In this document: positions 316 to 35,920 of the stretch, piece after piece
Layout of the letters: each line of letters begins with the position of its first letter
Position numbering within the stretch: position 1 is the stretch's first letter
Source of the DNA: Bacteroidota bacterium
GTDB taxonomy: Bacteria > Bacteroidota > Bacteroidia > Chitinophagales > CAIODY01
Reading direction: 5' to 3'
DNA: 37,282 nucleotides
NCBI GenBank assembly: GCA_041165265.1
Contig: JBEANU010000273.1
Span: 1 to 37,282, forward strand
Translations under genes and position numbers: made by a program
Notes under the pieces: model-generated
Database searches by the model: none
What the model was told of the DNA's origin: nothing
The model's input: the letters and a program-made list of their open reading frames with translations, nothing else

Positions 316-693
316 ATGATGTCGTCAGAAAATGAAATACAAAAATTTTTATCCTCATATTCAGATGAAGTAAAAATTAATGTAGCCATTTTACGAAAAA
401 AAATAAAAGCACTTTTACCTAATATTATTGAGCAGCTTGATTTACCAGCGAAAATGATTGGTTATTGTTACGGACAAAAATATACTGACCTGATATGCGT
501 TATCATTCCTTCAAAAAAAGGACTAAAGCTAGGTTTCAATCGTGGCAGTTCATTACCCGACCCTGAAAAATTATTGCAAGGAAATGGAAAAATTTCAAGA
601 TATGTTGAGATACATTTTGAACAACAAATTGAAAGCCCTGCCACCAAAATTTTAATTGAAAGCGCATTAAATCATTACTTGATTTTAAAATAA
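316..693 (+). CDS. DUF1801 (YdhG-like) domain protein
   Basis: 125-aa ORF. Its length and pattern (KLGFNRGSSLPDP...GNGKISRYVEI) resemble small DUF1801 proteins. Family assigned from memory. Confidence 0.6.
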   Translation: MMSSENEIQKFLSSYSDEVKINVAILRKKIKALLPNIIEQLDLPAKMIGYCYGQKYTDLICVIIPSKKGLKLGFNRGSSLPDPEKLLQGNGKISRYVEIHFEQQIESPATKILIESALNHYLILK

Positions 694-694
694 A

Positions 695-1129
695 TTATCC
701 TTTTGATCTTGAATCAAAATCAACCATCCATTCAATACCAAATTTATCACGAAACATGGCAAAGTACGAACCCCAAGGACTTTCAGCAATTGGCATTTCC
801 ACTTGTCCATCTTTTGAAAGCCCATAAAATATCTTATCAGCTTCTTCTTTACTTTCAGCACTGATTGAAATCTTGCTTCTAGTTTCCATTAAATTATGTT
901 TGCCCATTTGCTCAGGGGTATCACTTCCCATTAAAACACTGTGTTTGCCAATTGGCAAGGCGATATGCATAATTTTTTCAGCTTCGTTTCCCATATCAGG
1001 AGCGCCTTCAAAAGCCATATCTTTAAAACGAACTACTCTTTCAAACTCACCACCAAAAGCTGATTTGTAAAAAGTAAATGCTTCTTCTGCATTTCCGTTA
1101 AAATGAATGTAAGGATTAATTTGTGCCAT
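695..1129 (-). CDS. VOC/glyoxalase-fold protein (PhnB-like)
   Basis: 144 aa. N-terminus INPYIHFNGNAEEAFTFYKSAFGG and C-terminal FGIEWMV are typical of the PhnB/3-demethylubiquinone methyltransferase-like VOC family. Confidence 0.75.
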   Translation of the reverse strand: MAQINPYIHFNGNAEEAFTFYKSAFGGEFERVVRFKDMAFEGAPDMGNEAEKIMHIALPIGKHSVLMGSDTPEQMGKHNLMETRSKISISAESKEEADKIFYGLSKDGQVEMPIAESPWGSYFAMFRDKFGIEWMVDFDSRSKG

Positions 1130-1216
1130 ATTATTTTGTTTTGATTTTAAATAAAGGATATTAAATCAAATGTACACAGCTTTTTGCAGCTCTAATAAAA
1201 ACAGGTCAATTTTTCC

Positions 1217-1360
1217 AAAAAATCCCGAACCACTTTTTAATGATTTAAGATTTTAAAATTCATTTTTAATCGTTCGTTATTCGGTTCTTCGAATGTTTTA
1301 TTTTGAATAATCGAAGAGCCGAACACTTGAATGAAGAAATAAGAATGGCTTGGATTAATT
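1217..1360. repeat. structured intergenic repeat, copy A (loop inverted relative to B-D)
   Basis: Shares aaaaatcccgaaccac...cgttcgttattcggttcttcga[18-nt loop]tcgaagagccgaaca..gaatgaagaaa..agaatggcttggattaatt with copies at 2778 and 3521. Stem arms at 1280-1292 and 1311-1323. Confidence 0.9.
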
Positions 1361-1366
1361 TGATGA

Positions 1367-1597
1367 TTATTCTTTGTTGAAAAATCCGTCAGCACTTATA
1401 TCTTCATCTAATGTTTGCCAATGCAAAGCATAGCCGCCACTTACAATTTCAAAATTATTTCTTTCAGTTGGTAAGGCATTAGATAATGATTTGAAATTTT
1501 GTAATGGTAAACTTGCTGTTTTGCCATTTGTTGTTTCAATACAAATTTCAGAATCCGTAAACCAAACTTTTTTTATGGTGTAATCAAAAAATCCCAT
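1367..1597 (-). CDS. DUF2442 domain protein
   Basis: 76 aa. The motif FEIVSGGYALHWQTLDEDISADGF matches the DUF2442 C-terminal signature (G..ihW..lDedis). Confidence 0.7.
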   Translation of the reverse strand: MGFFDYTIKKVWFTDSEICIETTNGKTASLPLQNFKSLSNALPTERNNFEIVSGGYALHWQTLDEDISADGFFNKE

Positions 1598-1673
1598 GGT
1601 TATTATTTTTTAAAAAAATCTTGCCAACGCTTCAAAAATAAATCAGCATTTTCAACAATTTTTCATTCTGGTA

Positions 1674-1840
1674 TAATTCATTATTCGATTGTTCGTTATT
1701 CAGCTCTTCGATTATTCAAAATTAAACAATCGAAGAGCCGAACATTCGAATGAAGAAATGAGAATTGCTTGGATTAATTTTCAATTAAAGATTGTGTTCA
1801 GCTAAAATGCAGGAAGAAGAAGTACGTTTGTCAAATGTAG
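1674..1840. repeat. structured intergenic repeat, copy B (lacks the left terminator-like block, has the long right extension)
   Basis: attcgattgttcgttattcagctcttcga-ttattcaaaattaaacaa-tcgaagagccgaacattcgaatgaagaaatgagaattgcttggattaattttcaatta.agattgtgttcagc... aligns with copy C through about 1840. Confidence 0.9.
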
Positions 1841-1865
1841 GCTATGATGGTCAAGGGTATCCTAA

Positions 1866-2185
1866 TTAAATTTCTTTAAGCTTTAAATATTTCTTTCGCC
1901 CCAAGGTAAGATAATAATAAATTAAAAATGGAGTGAATAAAATTGAGTTGCTAAAACTCTTTACCATAAATATTTTTCTATCTGCTTCATCAACAGAAAA
2001 CAATATTTCAGGACTGCTACACCAATCAATTTTTGCTATCAATTTATGTTCACCACTTGTATTTCAAATTGCATTGTCTCTCCAATCGCAATTCTTCCTA
2101 TTTCTTTGTCATCTAAATAAAGCTTATAATCTCTAAATAGATTAATATTTTCTGATACTCGTTTTATTTCAATAAAAGGCATCAT
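1866..2185 (-). pseudogene. small hypothetical membrane-protein gene interrupted by a 1-nt frameshift
   Basis: ATG at 2185 reads MMPFIEIKRVSENINLFRDYKLYLDDKEIGRIAIGETMQFEIQVV and then hits a stop. The adjacent frame continues EHKLIAKIDWCSSPEILFSVDEADRKIFMVKSFSNSILFTPFLIYYYLTLGRKKYLKLKEI to the stop at 1866. The span is 320 nt, which is not a multiple of 3. The shift lies near 2049-2057. Confidence 0.45.
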
Positions 2186-2219
2186 TTTATAATGATTAAG
2201 AAACTTTTGGGATTTTTAA

Positions 2220-2528
2220 TTACATCCTTTTCTTCCAATTTCTATCGCTGCGTTTAGCATGCATAACCGCAACTATTTGAATGGTATTTTCATCAACAAA
2301 AAAATATACGCCATAAGGAAAACGATTCAGCATAGCTACTCTTACTGCTCTTCCTTTAATTTTATATTTCACCTCATAGCCTAATGGATGTTGTTGAATT
2401 TGTTGTGTAGAAGCTCTGAAACAAATGAGTAGTTCTAAACCCAAACCTTCAAGGTGTGATTCATACCAATACGTTGCTTCCGCTAAATCCTTTTCAGCAG
2501 CAGTTTGAACTTCTAATAGATAACTCAT
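2220..2528 (-). CDS. type II toxin, RelE/ParE family
   Basis: 102 aa. The pattern AEKDLAEATYWYE...QQHPLGY...FPYGVYFFVDENTIQIVAVMHAKR is typical of ParE/RelE plasmid-stabilisation toxins. ATGA overlap with the upstream antitoxin. Confidence 0.8.
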   Translation of the reverse strand: MSYLLEVQTAAEKDLAEATYWYESHLEGLGLELLICFRASTQQIQQHPLGYEVKYKIKGRAVRVAMLNRFPYGVYFFVDENTIQIVAVMHAKRSDRNWKKRM

Positions 2529-2734
2529 AATTGCTTTTGGATTCGTTTAATTACCGAATCAACTGATGAACCTTTGGTTGGTTTTTCATTATAAGCACTT
2601 ATTCTATCTTCTAACAATTGTAATTGCTTTTTCGAAAGCTTTCCAACGGTATCTTTTTCAATGCTGTCCCAAATAGTTTCAACTAAATGAATTCTATCTT
2701 TCACGTTTAGTTGCAATATTTCTTTAAGTTGCAT
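2525..2734 (-). CDS. antitoxin, putative addiction-module component
   Basis: Reads MQLKEILQLNVKDRIHLVETIWDSI..., resembling the Unstab_antitox/TIGR02574 family. I prefer the ATG at 2734 (69 aa). The ORF-track start at 2752 is a TTG lying inside a TATCTTTG promoter-like motif. Confidence 0.7.
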   Translation of the reverse strand: MQLKEILQLNVKDRIHLVETIWDSIEKDTVGKLSKKQLQLLEDRISAYNEKPTKGSSVDSVIKRIQKQL

Positions 2735-2749
2735 ATTGTTTGTTTTAAT

Positions 2750-2757
2750 CAAAGATA
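2750..2757 (-). promoter_or_regulatory. candidate Bacteroidota -7 promoter element TATCTTTG (TAnnTTTG)
   Basis: The minus strand reads TATCTTTG 15 nt upstream of the ATG at 2734. The identical octamer precedes the second antitoxin gene. Confidence 0.4.
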
Positions 2758-2777
2758 AATTCTAAATCTTCTAAAAC

Positions 2778-2980
2778 AAAAAATCCCGAACCACTTTTTA
2801 ATGATTTAAGATTTTAAAATTCATTTTTAATCGTTCGTTATTCGGCTCTTCGATTTTTCAAAATTAAACAATCGAAGAGCCGAACATTTGAATGAAGAAA
2901 GGAGAATGGCTTGGATTAATTTTCAATTAGAGATTGTGTTCAGCAAAAATGTAGGAAGAAAATGTACGATTGTTAGATTG
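2778..2980. repeat. structured intergenic repeat, copy C (longest, perfect inner stem)
   Basis: The first ~75 nt are near-identical to copy A. Stem ttcggctcttcga (2841-2853) pairs with tcgaagagccgaa (2872-2884). The right extension aligns with copy B. Confidence 0.9.
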
Positions 2981-2990
2981 GTTGAAGATT

Positions 2991-3272
2991 TCAACTCAAC
3001 AAAGAACCATGAATGATTACATAAATTACAATTTGGTTGGATTCAATTTTATAGGCAATTACCCAATGATTGATGAAAAAGCATTTCAGCTTTTTTGCTT
3101 TCAATGCTTCATTTTTGCAATCAAGATGAATAGGATTTTGTAGATGTGATTTTACATTTTCAACAAATCGTTTTTTGAATCTTTTGCCAGCACCTTTAGT
3201 ATTCTTGCTTTCTACAAACAATTCCAACTCATATAAAACTTGCTTAGCTGCTTCAGCTATTTTTATTTTCAT
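2991..3272 (-). CDS. probable ParE/RelE-like toxin
   Basis: 93 aa. C-terminal WVIAYKIESNQIVIYVIIHG fits the toxin beta-sheet pattern (y.i.Y.i..n.i.I..i.H). ATGA overlap with an upstream 69-aa ORF. Weaker match than 2220-2528. Confidence 0.5.
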   Translation of the reverse strand: MKIKIAEAAKQVLYELELFVESKNTKGAGKRFKKRFVENVKSHLQNPIHLDCKNEALKAKKLKCFFINHWVIAYKIESNQIVIYVIIHGSLLS

Positions 3273-3478
3273 GCCTCATCAATATCTGTCAGTTTACCTT
3301 CCATACATTTTGCAATATATTCATCTAATTCAGCTTTAGTAGCAGCTCTACCCATACCCAATGCTGCATCTTTTGCTTCTATTTGTTTGGTAGAATACTC
3401 AATTTTCAAATCTTTCAAAACGGATAAAAGCATTTTACCTTTCATTGAATTTTCGTTGAGATTAATTTGTAATTGCAT
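3269..3478 (-). CDS. probable antitoxin partner (family not recognised)
   Basis: 69-aa ORF coupled by an ATGA overlap to the toxin-like ORF. Same size and layout as the 2525-2734 antitoxin. Confidence 0.45.
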   Translation of the reverse strand: MQLQINLNENSMKGKMLLSVLKDLKIEYSTKQIEAKDAALGMGRAATKAELDEYIAKCMEGKLTDIDEA

Positions 3479-3495
3479 GTTTAAAAATTTGATTT

Positions 3496-3503
3496 CAAAG
3501 ATA
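3496..3503 (-). promoter_or_regulatory. candidate -7 promoter element TATCTTTG
   Basis: The minus strand reads TATCTTTG about 17 nt upstream of the ATG at 3478. Same octamer as at 2750-2757. Confidence 0.4.
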
Positions 3504-3520
3504 AAGTAATTTTTGCTTAT

Positions 3521-3652
3521 AAAAATCCCGAACCACTTTTCAATGATTCGGGATTTTAAATTTCATAATTCGATTGTTCGTTATTCGGTTCTTCGATTAT
3601 TCAAAATTAAACAATCGAAGAGCCGAACATTCGAATGAAGAAATGAGAATGG
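3521..3652. repeat. structured intergenic repeat, copy D (intact terminator-like hairpin plus main hairpin)
   Basis: aaaatcccgaa-N14-ttcgggatttt is a perfect 11-bp stem. The main hairpin follows: ttcggttcttcga (3584-3596), 18-nt loop, tcgaagagccgaa (3615-3627). The repeat starts 5 nt after the DPP III stop codon. Confidence 0.9.
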
Positions 3653-3656
3653 TAAT

Positions 3657-5714
3657 TTAATTCTTCACTCCTAAAAAAGAATATTTTTTACCATATTCCA
3701 TTGCTTGTTCGTAGAACGATTTTGGATATTCAACTTTTACATCCGTAATTTTTTCACCATCCATTACAGGTACTAATCGTGGTTGAATAAATCCTTTGTA
3801 AGGTTTCAAACCTAATGTAGCATAGCGTTCTAACACTTCTTTTAATAAATTTTGGTCAACTTTTACACCATAGTTTTCTACTAAATCTTTTCCGCCTTTA
3901 TAATCACCTTCTGATTTTACACGTTGAATTTCTTTTAATAACTGACCAAATAATATTCTTAATTTTTCATAGTCATTAATGCGTACATACGTTTTGCCAT
4001 CACGTTTTACAAATTCAATTACATTATCTTTTTTACCATGCTCATACGCCCACATAGCATTCAACTGACGATTACGCATATGTGCTTCTTCCAAATTATC
4101 ACCCATTTTAATACGGGTTAATTGCATGATTAAACCATTAGTAATGTAGTTGTCGTATTGTGCTTTAGCCACATCCATATTTGGCATTACACCCAATTCA
4201 ATCAATTTATTATCCATTATATAATATAAGCCAACTAAATCTGCACGGGCTTCTTCTAAGCAGCTTGCATAGTTTTTCAAAGTCTTATCAGTAGTTTCAA
4301 CACCCTTGTTAATTTGACCCGAAGCATGACCAATACACTCATGCATATCGGTATGTAAATCGCTACCCAAAGCGCCATATTTTTTATACCGATTGATAAC
4401 TGTTGAATCATATCCAAATTCATCAAACGAACCTTTTCTTGCACTCATCATATTGTATGAAGCCACAATATTGCTTAACGAAACTGATTTGCTACCGTGG
4501 TCTTTTCTTATCCAATCTGCATTTGGCAAATTGATACCAATTGGTGTAGAAGGGGCTGCATCGCCAGCTTCAACCACCACAGTAATTGCTTTAGCAGTAA
4601 TACCTTTTACTTCTTTCTTTTTATGTTCGGCAGCAATTGGCGAATTATCTTCAAACCATTGCGCATTGCTAGCAATTTTTGCCACCATTTTAGTAGCTTC
4701 CATATCTTTAATACTTACACAACTTTCGAAGCTAGCTTTTTTACCAATGGCATCGCCATATACTTCTATAAATCCATTTACACAATCAATACGGCTATCA
4801 ACATCATTTACCCATGAAATGCAGTATTCATCAAAATCTTTTAAATCGCCAGTTTTATAAAATTTAACCAGCTTCGTTAAAGCATCTTTTTGTTTATCGT
4901 TTTCAGCAACTGTTACAGCTTTTTCTAACCAACTTACCATCTTTTCAATAGCTGCACTATACATGCCACCTACTTTCCAAACCTTCTCAACTATTTGTCC
5001 GTTTTCTTTCGTGGTTTTGCTGTTTAATCCCCAACTTGGTGCATTGCCAGCGGTAGGAAATTTTGCATAAAAAGCTTCCACTTCTTTTTGCGAAACACCT
5101 TCATAAAAATTATTTGAAGATGCTGCAATGTTATCAATACCTGCACGTAAATCAACTTCTTTGGCTTTGTATTTAATATCAAACATTTCGGGTTGAATGC
5201 GTTTTAAAAATGCATCTAAGCTTTCGCCTTCATTTACCGGAAATCCTTTTGCATCGCTTGCTTTAGCAATAGTTGTAAAATATTCAAACGAACATTCGGG
5301 TACAAATTTATCATTGCTATAATGATGATGATTGCCATTACTAAACCAAAAACGGCCACAATATTCTTCAAATTTTTTCCAATCAGATGATGATTTATCA
5401 CCATTGTAAGTGCCATAAATATTCTCGATTGTTTTGCGTAACAAAATTCCGTCTTTGCTTTTTTGGTCGTAAATAATATCCCGTCCGCTTAATGCAGCTT
5501 CGTATAAATAATACGCCAAAGTTTTTTGTTGTAAACTCAATTCATTGAATCCTGGAATTTGATAACGCAACAATTGCAAATCGGCAAACGATTCGGCAGC
5601 TACTTCAAAATTTTCTTCGGTTTTGTTTTCCGTTGTTTTGGGTTGATTATTGCACGATGGCAAGGCAAATGTAGAGGCAGCTAAGGCTACAGCTATTGAC
5701 ATTCTTTTTATCAT
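3657..5714 (-). CDS. dipeptidyl-peptidase III-like zinc metallopeptidase (family M49), probable lipoprotein
   Basis: 685 aa. HECIGH (the HExxGH motif of M49) and a downstream EEARAD second zinc motif. N-terminal signal sequence ending ALPSC. Confidence 0.85.
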   Translation of the reverse strand: MIKRMSIAVALAASTFALPSCNNQPKTTENKTEENFEVAAESFADLQLLRYQIPGFNELSLQQKTLAYYLYEAALSGRDIIYDQKSKDGILLRKTIENIYGTYNGDKSSSDWKKFEEYCGRFWFSNGNHHHYSNDKFVPECSFEYFTTIAKASDAKGFPVNEGESLDAFLKRIQPEMFDIKYKAKEVDLRAGIDNIAASSNNFYEGVSQKEVEAFYAKFPTAGNAPSWGLNSKTTKENGQIVEKVWKVGGMYSAAIEKMVSWLEKAVTVAENDKQKDALTKLVKFYKTGDLKDFDEYCISWVNDVDSRIDCVNGFIEVYGDAIGKKASFESCVSIKDMEATKMVAKIASNAQWFEDNSPIAAEHKKKEVKGITAKAITVVVEAGDAAPSTPIGINLPNADWIRKDHGSKSVSLSNIVASYNMMSARKGSFDEFGYDSTVINRYKKYGALGSDLHTDMHECIGHASGQINKGVETTDKTLKNYASCLEEARADLVGLYYIMDNKLIELGVMPNMDVAKAQYDNYITNGLIMQLTRIKMGDNLEEAHMRNRQLNAMWAYEHGKKDNVIEFVKRDGKTYVRINDYEKLRILFGQLLKEIQRVKSEGDYKGGKDLVENYGVKVDQNLLKEVLERYATLGLKPYKGFIQPRLVPVMDGEKITDVKVEYPKSFYEQAMEYGKKYSFLGVKN

Positions 5715-5862
5715 TTTAAAATTTTTTTTAAGTGAGGCAAATGTAAGAAATGGATATTAAAGAATTAGGTAATTATTATTGAACCCGTTGTGGATTTCAG
5801 AAAAAGTACTTTAAAAAAACCCTTGTTAATAAAATAATATTAACCTAAAATGTAGCAGAAAA

Positions 5863-7522: not shown

Positions 7523-7837
7523 ATGAATAAAAAAATAAAATATTTTATTCCTATTTTTATAGCATTGGTATGCTTGATGTATCAAGCTATGCCAGTGCAT
7601 CAATTGTTTTTTGCCGATTCTGCTTTTTCGGTATCATTGATTGAAGAAGATGACACCGATACAGAAAAAGAAAACTCAACTCTGAAAAAAATAAAATCAG
7701 AAGGTAAAGATTTTGTAGCTGCTGAATTGCTTAGCCTTTTTTTCAATTCGTATTCAAGTTTTACTTATTACTACTTACACTTACCTCAATCATTTGAAGT
7801 AAATACAGTTTTTGCGCCACCGCCCGAGTTAGTTTAA
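7523..7837 (+). CDS. 104-aa membrane-anchored protein of unrecognised family, paralogue 1
   Basis: N-terminal hydrophobic segment YFIPIFIALVCLMYQAMP, acidic centre EEDDTDTEKEN, and C-terminus VFAPPPELV. Collinear with 12370-12684. Confidence 0.7.
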   Translation: MNKKIKYFIPIFIALVCLMYQAMPVHQLFFADSAFSVSLIEEDDTDTEKENSTLKKIKSEGKDFVAAELLSLFFNSYSSFTYYYLHLPQSFEVNTVFAPPPELV

Positions 7838-10949: not shown

Positions 10950-12346
10950 AAAAAATAATCCTATCATTTATTCTATTTTATATATCACCTACTATATCAA
11001 CGGCACAAACTGATGATAAAGTTTTGCCTTTAGATACATTTTTACATTGGGTGATACTAAATCATCCTATAGCTATACAAGCTAATCTTAATGTAAAAAT
11101 TGCGGCTGCTGAAATTTTAGCAGCAAGAGGAAGTTTTGACCCAACTTTAAGTTTCAATAATGACTCAAAAAAATTAAGTGGAGTCAATTACTATAATTAC
11201 GCAAATGCTGATTTATCCATTCCTACTTGGTTTGGAGTTAAATTAAATGGTGGATTTGAAAATAATTTGGGCAACCAAATCAGTAATGAACTTACGCCAA
11301 AAGCCAGTACATATGCTGGGGTATCTGTTCCATTATTAAAAGATTTACTTTTTGATAAACGCCGTGCAGCTTTAAAACAAGCTTTAATTTTTAAAAACCA
11401 ATCTGAATGGGATAAAAAAAATACCCTCAATAATTTATATACCGATGCATATATTGCTTATTTAAATTGGGTAAAAGAATATTTAATTTATGGCCTACTT
11501 ACCCGAGTAAATGCCACCAACTCAAACAGATTTAAGTTTACAAAAAAATTGTTTGAAAGTGGTGATAAATCAGCCATTGATACCATTGAAGGGTTAACTC
11601 AATTGCAAAATTTTGAATTACTATTAAATGAATCAAAGCTTAGATTAGTGAAACAATATTATGAATTAAGTAATTTTTTATGGTTAAATAATCAACCCAT
11701 TTACTTAAAAGATAAGATAGTGCCTGATACAACTGTTCTTTCAAATTTAAATTTTACAATTGATACAGCACAGTTTTTTTCACAGTTTGAACAACACCCC
11801 AAAATTCAATCCCTAAACTCTAAAATAAACTGGATTAAAACTGAGCAAAAACTCAAATTTCAATCATTATTGCCGCAAGTAAATGTTAAATATAATTTTT
11901 TACAAAAAGGTTATTATCCATCCGATTTCAATCAAAATCAATTTTTACAAAACAATTATAAATATGGCATTTCGGTGAGCATTCCAATTCCAAACAGAAA
12001 TGCATTTGCGCAGTATAACATGAGCAAATTAAAAGTTGAAATAACAAAAACTGAACAGCAATATCAACTTACAATGCTTAAAAATAAAGCCTCCTACTAT
12101 GTATCTGAAATTGAAAATATAAACAAACAAATTTATGCTACATCAAAATTGGGCGCTAATTACAAATTATTACTTGATACTGAAGAGATGAAATTTCATT
12201 TAGGAGAAACATCTTTATTTTTACTGAACAATAGGGAAATAAAATGGCTAGAATCAATCATTAAACTAACTGAACTAAAATCAAAAATTCTTGTTTCAAT
12301 AATTAGTTTAAAGAATTATTCAAATCAAATTAAAGTTGCCCAATAA
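10946..12346 (+). CDS. TolC-family outer-membrane efflux protein
   Basis: 466 aa. Signal peptide ending STAQ and a two-repeat helical/beta pattern typical of OMF proteins. ATGA overlap with the HlyD gene. Confidence 0.75.
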   Translation: MKKIILSFILFYISPTISTAQTDDKVLPLDTFLHWVILNHPIAIQANLNVKIAAAEILAARGSFDPTLSFNNDSKKLSGVNYYNYANADLSIPTWFGVKLNGGFENNLGNQISNELTPKASTYAGVSVPLLKDLLFDKRRAALKQALIFKNQSEWDKKNTLNNLYTDAYIAYLNWVKEYLIYGLLTRVNATNSNRFKFTKKLFESGDKSAIDTIEGLTQLQNFELLLNESKLRLVKQYYELSNFLWLNNQPIYLKDKIVPDTTVLSNLNFTIDTAQFFSQFEQHPKIQSLNSKINWIKTEQKLKFQSLLPQVNVKYNFLQKGYYPSDFNQNQFLQNNYKYGISVSIPIPNRNAFAQYNMSKLKVEITKTEQQYQLTMLKNKASYYVSEIENINKQIYATSKLGANYKLLLDTEEMKFHLGETSLFLLNNREIKWLESIIKLTELKSKILVSIISLKNYSNQIKVAQ

Positions 12347-12369: not shown

Positions 12370-12684
12370 ATGAATCAAAACCGAAAATATTTTATTCCTA
12401 TTTTTATAGCATTGGTTTGCTTGATGTATCAGGCCATGCCAATTCATAAATTATTTTCAACTGATTCAGTTTTTTCGGTATCAATGATTGATGAAGATGA
12501 CAATGATGCTGAAAAAGAAAACCCAACTTCAAAAAAAGTAAAATCTGAAGTGGATGATTTTATTACCTCTGATACGGTTTTGCTTTTTGTAAATCCATCA
12601 TCCAATACTATTTATTATTTCCATCATTTACCCAAATCATTTGAGGTAACATCAGTATTTGCGCCACCGCCCGAGTTAGTTTAA
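12370..12684 (+). CDS. 104-aa membrane-anchored protein of unrecognised family, paralogue 2
   Basis: Gap-free alignment with 7523-7837, roughly two-thirds identical by hand count. Identical KYFIPIFIALVCLMYQAMP and VFAPPPELV termini. Confidence 0.7.
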   Translation: MNQNRKYFIPIFIALVCLMYQAMPIHKLFSTDSVFSVSMIDEDDNDAEKENPTSKKVKSEVDDFITSDTVLLFVNPSSNTIYYFHHLPKSFEVTSVFAPPPELV

Positions 12685-34291: not shown

Positions 34292-35320
34292 CTAATCTAC
34301 ATCAATGAATTTTTTTATATTTTCTAAATCAGAAAGTTCAGAATCTTCTTTGAACATAAATCCGTTTTCTTCTTTTTCAATTATTTCAGCAGGAGAGTTT
34401 GGCTTGAGTAGAATCTTATAAGAAGACATTTTCATAGGTGAATTTTTAGCCCCGTAAAGTATAATCAGATGAGCGATGTTATTTGTTTTCTTCAATTCAT
34501 TAATATCAAAAATTAGGCAATGCACTTCTGAACTTGGTGCACCAAAGTGAACAATATCAACAACATCGTTTCTCCATTTTTCATGTCCATTATTTTGAAA
34601 TGAAGTTTTAAAGTTTGTTGAGGGGATAAATGGGGCATAATCTTGAAAGATACCATTGCTAGCTATTCTGAAGGACAATGAATAATCATTTTGAAATCTT
34701 GAAAGATTGGTAAAATATGTTTTGAATATCAAAAGAATTTTTCCTTCTTGAGTTTTTGTATCAAAAATTTTTAAAAAGCTCAACAGATTAGGAAACTTTA
34801 TTCGTTTGAATAACGCTTCAATAAAGTGATACGGCGCTTTGTTGGTTTGTCCATCAATTCTCATAAAAAATCTATCTTCAAATTGATGAGGTGAATATTC
34901 ACTTTTCGGAATTTCAAAAATGTAAATGAACTTTCCTTCGTTTTCAATTCTGTGAAATAAAATTCCGTAAGGAGTTGGTGTTAATCGATTTACAATTTTC
35001 GCCATGAATTGGTCTTTCTCATAAAGGGTTTCAACCAAAGACAATTCTCCCGTAAATATTTTTTCTTTTCTGCCATCTTCTGCTTTTTTTCCAATTGGCG
35101 CTCCCCAAATTAAAAGTCCACCTTCTGAATTTAGAAATGCGCAAATTGATTTTAGAATTGCTTTTTCTTTATCTGTTGTGGACTCTTTATCGTTTGAAAA
35201 AAAAGACTTGAATTCAATCTTATCACTTTCCGTTTTCTCTTCATTGAAAAATTTCACAACATCATTATAAGTGATTTCTTCGATTTTTTCCTTGTTGAAA
35301 TATTGATTGAAATAGTTCAT
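34292..35320 (-). CDS. AlbA_2 (Schlafen-like divergent AAA/DNA-binding) domain protein with unassigned C-terminal half
   Basis: ESDKIEFKSF...ILKSICAFLNSEGGLLIWG...FIYIFEIPKSEYSPH...FFMRIDGQTNKAPYHFIEAL matches the AlbA_2 pattern. The C-terminal ~170 aa are not recognised. Confidence 0.65.
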   Translation of the reverse strand: MNYFNQYFNKEKIEEITYNDVVKFFNEEKTESDKIEFKSFFSNDKESTTDKEKAILKSICAFLNSEGGLLIWGAPIGKKAEDGRKEKIFTGELSLVETLYEKDQFMAKIVNRLTPTPYGILFHRIENEGKFIYIFEIPKSEYSPHQFEDRFFMRIDGQTNKAPYHFIEALFKRIKFPNLLSFLKIFDTKTQEGKILLIFKTYFTNLSRFQNDYSLSFRIASNGIFQDYAPFIPSTNFKTSFQNNGHEKWRNDVVDIVHFGAPSSEVHCLIFDINELKKTNNIAHLIILYGAKNSPMKMSSYKILLKPNSPAEIIEKEENGFMFKEDSELSDLENIKKFIDVD

Positions 35321-35338
35321 GGTTTTTAAAATTTAAGC

Positions 35339-35920
35339 TTATGCAGCAATGGCTTCGGCATATTTTATTTCGTAAGTTACATTTTCATTTAGCCCATCAA
35401 TTTTTAAAACACCACTATCAAACTGATTGAGTAAAATAAAACTTTGGGTGTAGTTTCCTAAAATATCCAACAAGCCTTTTGCTTCCACCAAATTCAAATT
35501 TTCTGCTCCACTTTGTTGAATAATATTCACCACTTTTTGCAATTCATCTAATCGCTTTTGATTGATGGTGTAACCTTTTACCAAATAATCTTTTAAGCGT
35601 TGCGTTGCCCACTGACGAAATTGAGTTGCTTGTTTTGAATTGACTCTATAACCAACTGATATTATCACATCAAGATTGTACAAATTCATTTTACGCTTTT
35701 TGCCATCGGCTGCAACTTGTTCCAAAATGGAACAGGTTGAATTTTGCGCCAATTCTTTTGACAAATAAATGTTGTTGATGTGTTTTACAATTGCCGGTCT
35801 GTTAACCGAAAAAAGTTTAGCAATTAAATGTGCATCTAACCAAATTGTTTCTTTATCCAAGCTAACTTGAATTTCAGAACCAGTGTCTGTTTTATAAATT
35901 TCAATTTCTCCTTTTTGCAT
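35339..35920 (-). CDS. RhuM-family N-terminal module, apparently lacking the usual C-terminal Fic/Doc part
   Basis: IWLDAHLIAKLFSVNRPAIVKHINNIY...KMNLYNLDVIISVGYRVNSKQATQFRQWATQRLKDYLVKGY matches the RhuM pattern. The ORF ends at 193 aa, within the linker region. Confidence 0.65.
   Translation of the reverse strand: MQKGEIEIYKTDTGSEIQVSLDKETIWLDAHLIAKLFSVNRPAIVKHINNIYLSKELAQNSTCSILEQVAADGKKRKMNLYNLDVIISVGYRVNSKQATQFRQWATQRLKDYLVKGYTINQKRLDELQKVVNIIQQSGAENLNLVEAKGLLDILGNYTQSFILLNQFDSGVLKIDGLNENVTYEIKYAEAIAA

Follow-up and report, generated by a model that had tools for sequence, protein, structure and literature searches.

The attC sites of integrons carry RYYYAAC (R'') on the 5' arm and the complementary GTTRRRY (R') on the 3' arm at the base of a stem, together with an R box, an unpaired central spacer, an L box and 2-3 extrahelical bases. 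Integrative elements and their integrase-less derivatives can accrete in tandem (cis-mobilizable elements, CIMEs; tycheposon-type islands); in such CIME-like arrays each cargo unit lies between direct repeats of varying length that duplicate the 3' end of a conserved target gene, and an integrase is encoded in one or more of the units or in a helper element. The arms of dif sites follow a consensus of the ATAA-N6-TTAT type, and in Acinetobacter small modules, often toxin-antitoxin (TA) pairs, are bounded by short dif-like sites (pdif) served by XerC/XerD and are shuffled between replicons with no dedicated recombinase nearby. The Bacteroidetes are nearly without integrons: apart from In0 elements, the phylum has one complete integron, that of Salinibacter (PMC9024848). 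Here, we describe a 37.3-kb stretch of DNA (GenBank contig JBEANU010000273.1, positions 1 to 37,282; "the window") in which four copies of a palindromic repeat separate small accessory genes just downstream of the gene for dipeptidyl peptidase III (DPP III). Homologues of this DPP III, 70-100% identical, are spread over Chitinophagales-like Bacteroidota, and they place the contig in an uncultured freshwater member of that group. The locus has an integron-like layout built from non-integron sites, in a phylum nearly devoid of integrons. We tentatively interpret the repeat as the joint at which accessory modules are exchanged.

Repeat finding and alignment defined four co-oriented copies on the minus strand, at 1216-1361 (copy 1), 1672-1836 (copy 2), 2777-2978 (copy 3) and 3521-3652 (copy 4), which together span 2.4 kb and lie 419-1142 nt apart. 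All genes across 690-5720 are also on the minus strand, and in coding order the locus runs DPP III, copy 4, a 69-aa open reading frame (ORF) with a ParE gene, copy 3, an Unstab_antitox gene with a second ParE gene, two small ORFs, copy 2, a DUF2442 gene, copy 1 and a VOC gene. Every copy is 3' of a co-oriented ORF, between its stop codon and the next module's match to TAnnTTTG, the Bacteroidetes -7 promoter box. The 13-mer TCGAAGAGCCGAA, allowing up to two mismatches, matches the eight arms of the four inner palindromes and nothing else in the window, and none of 100 shuffled sequences reached eight matches. A covariance model of the core, built from five known copies, found no further copy in the window, not even a weak one. 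Under random placement, the chance that all four copies would fall within 2.44 kb of the 37.3 kb is about 0.001. When the same model was applied to 91.5 kb comprising the window and eight related loci (about 54 kb of related DNA), copies were found only downstream of DPP III, in the lineage of the window and in three relatives (L015, L017 and L027), and none in the other 35 kb of the window or elsewhere in the related loci. Seven copies are known altogether. The original prediction, that four copies are confined to this 2.4 kb of the window and that each follows a stop codon by 5-25 nt, is borne out as to number and confinement. It also holds as to position after a stop codon, with measured distances from stop codon to the start of repeat homology of about 4, 12, 28 and 6 nt.

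The genes between the copies are mutually unrelated. Family searches covered 37 ORFs of the window. In the Pfam and NCBIfam assignments, the array is headed by DPP III (peptidase M49; 3657..5714, minus strand; PF03571, E 1e-45), which serves as its housekeeping anchor. Module 1 (2991..3478, minus strand) combines a 69-aa putative antitoxin (3269-3478), without a family match in Pfam or NCBIfam, and a ParE-family toxin (2991-3272; PF05016), the two overlapping by 4 nt. Module 2a (2220..2752, minus strand) is a second pair, made up of an Unstab_antitox/TIGR02574 antitoxin (2525-2752) and a ParE-family toxin (2220-2528). The two pairs, here TA1 and TA2, share 19% identity over 47 residues. Module 2b (1866..2185, minus strand) is, by alignment with homologues, a frameshifted gene of about 106 aa that is weakly DUF2846-like and is now split into two ORFs (48 and 58 aa). 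When 1.8 billion representative proteins were searched, ORF 1866-2042 matched residues ~48-105 of proteins of 100-140 aa, with alignment to residues 55-110 in homologues of 105-110 aa, and ORF 2039-2185 aligns with residues 9-50 of one of the same homologues, itself weakly DUF2846-like. Module 3 (1367..1597, minus strand) is an orphan DUF2442 gene (PF10387, E 7e-17). The inventory proposed earlier, two antitoxin-toxin pairs, an orphan DUF2442 gene and a decayed small gene, agrees with these family searches. Past the last repeat, the first gene encodes a VOC/glyoxalase (PhnB-like) protein (695..1129, minus strand; Pfam/NCBIfam). This gene was considered as a conserved right border of the array and rejected, as its 91% homologue in the metagenome-assembled genome (MAG) GCA_039796635.1 sits elsewhere, without the repeat. 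Among 15 billion proteins, no cassette protein had a relative of at least 90% identity outside the same strain, and exact matching of the cassette proteins returned that strain alone (L001, L021 and L022).

Each module looks self-sufficient with respect to transcription, judging by motif matches. Both antitoxin genes, the DUF2442 gene and the VOC gene have a match to TAnnTTTG 20-50 nt upstream of their start codons, and all four matches lie downstream of the repeat that precedes the gene. The predicted boxes, all on the minus strand, read TATCTTTG for module 1 (3503-3496), TATCTTTG again for module 2a (2757-2750), TATTTTTG for module 3 (1640-1633) and TACATTTG for the VOC gene (1174-1167).

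On the coding strand, the core of the repeat consists of ATTCTCNTTTCTTC, ATTCGAATGTT, CGGCTCTTCGATTGTT, the loop, AATAATCGAAGARCCG, AATAACG and AACAATCGAAT, in that order. The inner stem has 14-15 perfect pairs, with pairing that runs on almost to the centre (14-20 bp in folds), and by direct reading the inner palindrome is symmetric nearly to its centre, with just three asymmetric positions. A one-sided 7-nt bulge can slip between two registers because CGAA occurs twice. The outer stem comprises 11-12 pairs. Copies 2, 3 and 4 fold better than shuffled sequences on both strands (z -3.4 to -5.0, the latter for copy 2; 0 of 200 shuffles as good), and folding of copy 1 is weak (z -1.4 and -2.4). 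Of 26 modelled pairs, 20-25 are Watson-Crick in every copy. Two pairs show compensatory change, from G-C to A-T in the outer stem and from C-G to T-A in the inner stem, the latter with C·A intermediates, and the wobble pairs favour neither strand. Of the long imperfect hairpin that the original prediction ascribed to each copy, the inner stem and the one-sided bulge stand, with the reservation that copy 1 folds weakly. The outer stem of about 11 bp holds for copies 2 and 4, which alone pair it well, and not for copies 1 and 3, which belong to a second subtype and pair it poorly. In Rfam, a gathering-threshold scan of the whole window and an E-value scan of 1100-3800 returned no family at threshold; the sub-threshold matches were to eukaryotic miRNAs and snoRNAs, as is typical of any long AT-rich hairpin.

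Homology between the copies extends beyond the hairpin, and its ends vary on both sides. A full-length element measures about 200-240 nt: some 70 nt of upstream flank, then a two-stem imperfect palindrome that is also about 70 nt long, and finally a copied DPP III terminator hairpin. The upstream ~70 nt are common to copies 2 and 3 and the copy in L015; some 60 nt downstream are common to copies 1, 3 and 4 and end exactly at the T-run of a terminator-like hairpin. Copy 4 (126 bits in the covariance model) has a short upstream stub, a palindrome that runs from outer stem to outer stem at 3568-3636 with an inner 44-nt palindrome at 3584-3627, and a terminator hairpin at 3523-3556. Copy 3 (134 bits) is full length, with the ~70-nt upstream flank, its inner palindrome at 2841-2884 and a terminator part; copy 2 (139 bits) has the full upstream flank and its inner palindrome at 1699-1742; copy 1 (123 bits) has a truncated upstream flank, its inner palindrome at 1280-1323 and a terminator part. 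A second, terminator-like hairpin had been predicted in three of the four copies. It is intact in copy 4 only; copies 1 and 3 carry a single decayed version with the same four stem-breaking substitutions, and copy 2 has none. The copies fall into two subtypes, A (copies 1 and 3) and B (copies 2 and 4 and the L015 copy). Both outer-stem arms differ between the subtypes in a coherent way, and the order in the array is B-A-B-A. Over 73 nt 3' of the loop, copies 1 and 3 do not differ at all.

Two features of the loop region stand apart from this pattern. In copy 1, the central 20 nt (1292-1311) are inverted relative to copies 2-4, matching by our own count at 18 of 20 positions as the reverse complement and at 11 of 20 directly, and both flanks of the inverted centre keep the common orientation. 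In the inverted comparison copy 1 is 91% complementary to the other copies, compared to 82-84% among those others. The inversion is a hairpin-loop flip and suggests in vivo pairing of the arms or recombination between them. In copies 2-4, the coding strand of the loop has TAATTTTG (1717-1724, 2859-2866 and 3602-3609, minus strand), which matches TAnnTTTG, a match that the loop of copy 1 has lost. It could be a chance occurrence in an AT-rich loop, or an outward promoter.

The same position was compared across relatives, and in the lineages with the repeat DPP III is 88-93% identical to that of the window at the nucleotide level. The loci L001, L021 and L022 are the same strain recovered from metagenomes and have the same array (99.8-99.9% identity for L001 and L021). 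In L027 (DPP III 87.8%), the core that comes after DPP III is shortened, with the 3' arm of its inner stem absent, and an intact terminator comes next; past the terminator, by our own reading, lies a homologue of the sequence that follows copy 3 in the window, namely the TA2 promoter (26/32). L027 is collinear with window positions 5746-3521 and then with 2907-2746. Because collinearity runs through copy 4 and its terminator and then resumes at the TA2 promoter, the two loci differ by one module and one repeat: the window has TA1 and a repeat copy that L027 lacks. In L017 (90%; MAG GCA_039796635.1), DPP III is followed by the terminator, 45 nt and a repeat, inside which the contig ends. L015 (93%) has DPP III, the terminator, about 100 nt of conserved DNA, a VanW gene, a full-length repeat whose terminator copy is cut off halfway, and beyond it a YafQ-type TA pair in reversed orientation. 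The same full-length element is found after three genes that have no relation to one another: in the window, ParE1 and the DUF2846-like pseudogene, and in L015, VanW.

Other relatives have the terminator without the repeat. In L013 and L014 (92%), DPP III and the terminator are followed by other genes, in L013 one for a 186-aa unknown protein; in L016 (81% nucleotide identity; DPP III 84% at the protein level) they are followed by AAA_21 and RloB genes; and in L018 (88%) the contig ends about 210 nt past DPP III, after the terminator. The covariance model detected no repeat in L013, L014, L018 or L016. The terminator is conserved in L013-L018 and L027, which marks it as the ancestral DPP III terminator of the whole clade, and the palindromic element is present in some lineages only, always just downstream of DPP III. 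With VanW and a YafQ-type pair, a 186-aa unknown protein, or AAA_21 and RloB as cargo in different relatives, the content of the site turns over. From the stop codon of DPP III to the terminator, the DNA of these lineages is not alignable, and the repeat is 87-97% identical between them, with the core conserved at about the level of coding DNA. A repeat this similar beside an unalignable spacer must be either under constraint or recently exchanged.

Searches of public sequence data returned no further copies. BLASTN of the full element against PLSDB plasmids and INPHARED phages gave no match, and an exact-pattern scan of IMG/VR gave 0 matches. In GTDB representative genomes there were 11 single exact-pattern matches in unrelated phyla, about the chance expectation, and JGI metagenome contigs yielded 0 matches and then two chance matches of 24 nt. 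These negatives are weak evidence on copy number, as the lineage is barely sampled (the GTDB, JGI and IMG/VR collections evidently do not contain it) and short-read contigs break at the repeat. For example, contigs end in or beside it at L017 4226-4278, at L021 1-120, at both ends of L022 and at the start of L026, and public assemblies therefore under-report the repeat, with exact-pattern scans biased towards missing copies. The repeat translated in its open frames had no match among 5.8 billion proteins. The cassette-like interpretation survives the test set for it in the original prediction, in that no copies were seen at unrelated intergenic sites, relatives carry different cargo, and L027 lacks one module together with one repeat.

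We propose, as the best available explanation, that self-contained accessory modules have accreted into a small array just 3' of DPP III, with the repeat as their joint. Each module would comprise one to three small genes, preceded by a promoter box and followed, at the 3' end, by a repeat copy, both belonging to that module. Modules would be added, lost and probably shuffled through recombination between the copy of a module and a resident copy, for which host homologous recombination could suffice given 100-240 nt at 85-100% identity, and the hairpin and terminator would act as a 3'-end insulator for each module. To this combination of homology-driven exchange and insulation we would give not quite an even chance. 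The cargo is unrelated but the repeat copies are 85-100% identical, which excludes tandem duplication of whole units, ruled out by the unrelated TA proteins, and implies that each gene set arrived with or next to a repeat copy. The identical decayed terminator of copies 1 and 3 indicates that copying carries a non-functional flank along, as recombination would. Also in favour of this reading are the restriction of the family to DNA downstream of DPP III, the changing cargo of the relatives, the lack of a recombinase or transposase gene near the array and the breaks of related short-read contigs at the repeat. The module and repeat that distinguish the window from L027 may have been gained by one lineage or lost by the other, and the enzyme responsible would be either RecA or a dedicated recombinase. 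Among described systems, the resemblance to CIMEs and tycheposons lies in direct repeats that include a copy of the DPP III terminator, flank successive cargo and vary in length. The array differs from those islands in its units of 0.4-1.1 kb, none with an integrase, and in its palindromic core, since in most relatives the 3' end of DPP III includes the terminator alone and not the core. Integron arrays, dif-module plasmids and tandem integrated elements all behave like the proposed accretion array, and the structural intuition behind the original prediction was therefore sound.

Several considerations weigh against exchange by homologous recombination. That process needs no conserved two-stem structure, and the conservation of the core amid unalignable spacers, with two compensatory changes, points to selection on structure, whether as a recombinase site or as an RNA element. 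No circular or excised intermediate was seen in the sequences compared, nor an empty site in a near-identical strain, and the comparisons are all between lineages 7-12% apart in DPP III rather than between strains. The surroundings of the array are poorly syntenic among lineages, so some of the differences could be larger rearrangements. The restriction of the repeat to the DPP III locus was observed over 91.5 kb. A role at the RNA level is unsupported, as the wobble pairs have no strand preference.

A first rival explanation is a new, non-canonical attC-like system, in which a dedicated site-specific recombinase encoded elsewhere targets the two-stem palindrome, as a folded single strand or as duplex, and inserts and excises circular modules in a functional analogue of integron cassettes or Xer-dependent dif modules. 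We consider this somewhat unlikely. As in a cassette array, N modules are set among N+1 sites beside a conserved gene and the TA-type cargo has predicted promoters of its own; one module plus one repeat differs between lineages. The two-stem architecture is specific, its core is conserved across lineages where adjacent spacers are unalignable, two base pairs show compensatory change, and the inner palindrome is near-symmetric (three asymmetric positions), like simple tyrosine recombinase sites. But no recombinase lies within reach. None of the 37 window ORFs tested encodes an integrase, transposase or other recombinase, in agreement with the original prediction; they belong to housekeeping or other non-recombinase families or match no family. 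To the left of window position 1, where the original prediction suggested looking, none was seen either over about 2 kb; this DNA, seen via L021, encodes an LEA_2 protein and biotin carboxylase. In all, no recombinase or transposase was found within 35 kb on one side of the array and about 3.3 kb on the other. Acinetobacter dif modules are served by a housekeeping recombinase encoded at a distance, and by that precedent the array would not need a recombinase gene beside it. They also resemble this array in having small modules, often TA pairs, bounded by short sites; pdif sites, however, are 28 bp long (11-6-11), resemble the host dif, alternate in orientation and lie on plasmids, whereas the repeats here are 110-240 nt long, chromosomal and in direct orientation. 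By direct reading, the repeat core contains no dif-like arms of the ATAA-N6-TTAT type, and a location at the chromosomal dif or terminus was rejected, as cumulative GC skew is monotonic, with no turning point. Also at odds with a dedicated system are the variable homology ends on both sides, which leave no sharp site edge, and the inner stem of the L027 copy, which lacks its 3' arm. Copy 4 is orthologous to the L027 copy throughout, with the 3' half and the terminator included, which places the junction at the terminator end and not in the core. A left/right mosaic of the core, expected for crossover inside it, was sought and not found, and the subtypes are coherent across the core. That the palindrome is the recombination site of a previously undescribed cassette system of Chitinophagales-like Bacteroidota, with its recombinase encoded elsewhere and its platform beside DPP III, seems unlikely to us; in such a system, promoter-bearing mini-modules would be captured and released in an independently evolved functional counterpart of the integron with a different site architecture.

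A genuine integron remnant, that is, a cluster of canonical attC sites lacking integron integrases (CALIN) whose integrase was lost or is encoded elsewhere, would explain much of the same layout. As in CALINs and sedentary chromosomal integrons, an imperfect palindrome follows each small co-oriented accessory gene, the cargo is rich in TA pairs, the sites are highly similar within the array and anchored beside a core gene, and no integrase is nearby; the sites number more than one, are separated by under 4 kb and all stand 3' of cassette ORFs that share their orientation, and a length of about 70-130 nt is within the attC range. By regular expression on both strands, however, no RYYYAAC/GTTRRRY pair spans any copy, and the sole pair below position 4000, at 3728-3788 inside DPP III, is a chance match. 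The stems read 5'-ATTCGAATGTT ... AACAATCGAAT-3', that is, GTT followed by AAC, the polarity opposite to attC, and the bulge is one-sided and 7 nt long in place of a central spacer and extrahelical bases. The homologous stretch runs past the hairpin, has ragged ends and takes in a terminator copy. The modules have their own promoter boxes, the phylum is nearly devoid of integrons, and neither the window nor about 2 kb of DNA to its left encodes an IntI-type tyrosine recombinase. We therefore keep the cassette-like layout from the integron comparison made in the original prediction and discard attC identity; an actual CALIN is highly improbable. The alternative raised there, a locally amplified terminator element of the repetitive extragenic palindromic (REP) type or the MITE type (miniature transposable elements with inverted repeats), is correct to the extent that part of the repeat copies the DPP III terminator. 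In its general form, a mobile non-autonomous repeat such as a REPIN (a REP doublet), a MITE or an IS200/IS605-type palindrome would have inserted independently 3' of each gene in an island that tolerates insertions, which we consider improbable. Like REPINs and enterobacterial repetitive intergenic consensus (ERIC) elements (PMC3116915, PMC3337134), the copies are long imperfect hairpins, here about 70-100 nt in length, that lie in transcribed extragenic DNA close behind stop codons and break assemblies; all copies here also share one orientation. Those elements, in contrast, are scattered, as a rule with over 100 copies in a genome, have a GTAG or CGTC tag at the base of a palindrome of 20-40 nt and are linked to REP-associated tyrosine transposases (RAYTs), whereas this repeat occupies a single locus in the available DNA, the same one in four lineages. 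Our own reading of the core found no GTAG/CGTC tag, the window encodes no RAYT, TnpA or other Y1 transposase, the protein search with the translated repeat was empty, and terminal inverted repeats or target duplications are not visible at consistent ends, the truncation points being ragged and different in each copy. A piece of the local DPP III terminator would also be unexpected in an independently transposing element. Even less probable, in our estimation, is a purely regulatory or RNA element (an operator, a stabiliser in the 3' untranslated region or a small RNA) with no role in genome dynamics, such that modular variation reflects unrelated turnover at a hotspot. Its invariable place on the coding strand, after a stop codon and before a terminator or promoter, its stable hairpin and the match of TAATTTTG in the loop of copies 2-4 to the -7 box are consistent with such a function. 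Against it are the lack of an Rfam family at threshold and of strand bias in the wobble pairs, the expectation that unrelated TA systems would not share an operator, and the near-identical copy on every unrelated module, which it leaves unexplained.

Overall, the array works most like a CALIN or a dif-module array and lacks the defining features of each, and we have filed it under repeat-bounded accessory module arrays. If the repeats are exchange points, as we tentatively propose, the locus would be a compact, sequence-defined case in which an integron-poor phylum assembles arrays of TA and other small accessory genes, and it would offer a concrete, testable site. It could also aid annotation, as variable TA and defence islets would be delimited by their joint repeats. 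If instead this is a local repeat family only, it serves as a caution that integron-like layouts arise without attC sites.

Additional observations concern the DPP III locus in the relatives. In L015, a different direct repeat of 68 nt (3637-3704 and 4308-4375; 76% identity), absent from the window, flanks the reversed YafQ/RelE-type pair, and TA modules bounded by repeats may be a general feature of the DPP III hotspot. L016 has a perfect 20-bp palindrome (12207-12249) right after the DPP III terminator and before AAA_21 and RloB, which is not similar to the repeat. About 100 nt after the terminator are common to L013 (~4960-5060) and L015 (~2335-2430), including a TATTTTTG box; beyond this shared stretch, L013 continues with the 186-aa unknown protein and L015 with VanW, and it looks as if different cargo stands behind one conserved promoter region.

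Elsewhere in the window, no tRNA or tmRNA was found. Two paralogous 104-aa ORFs with a hydrophobic N-terminus (7523-7837 and 12370-12684) share about 80% nucleotide identity; one stands before an ABC/HlyD/OEP export operon, and after the other come genes for a sulfate permease and a carbonic anhydrase. Near the right end, amid housekeeping genes, a Schlafen/AlbA_2-domain gene adjoins a RhuM-family gene (34292-35920), and this pair forms a second small accessory or defence-like patch in the window.

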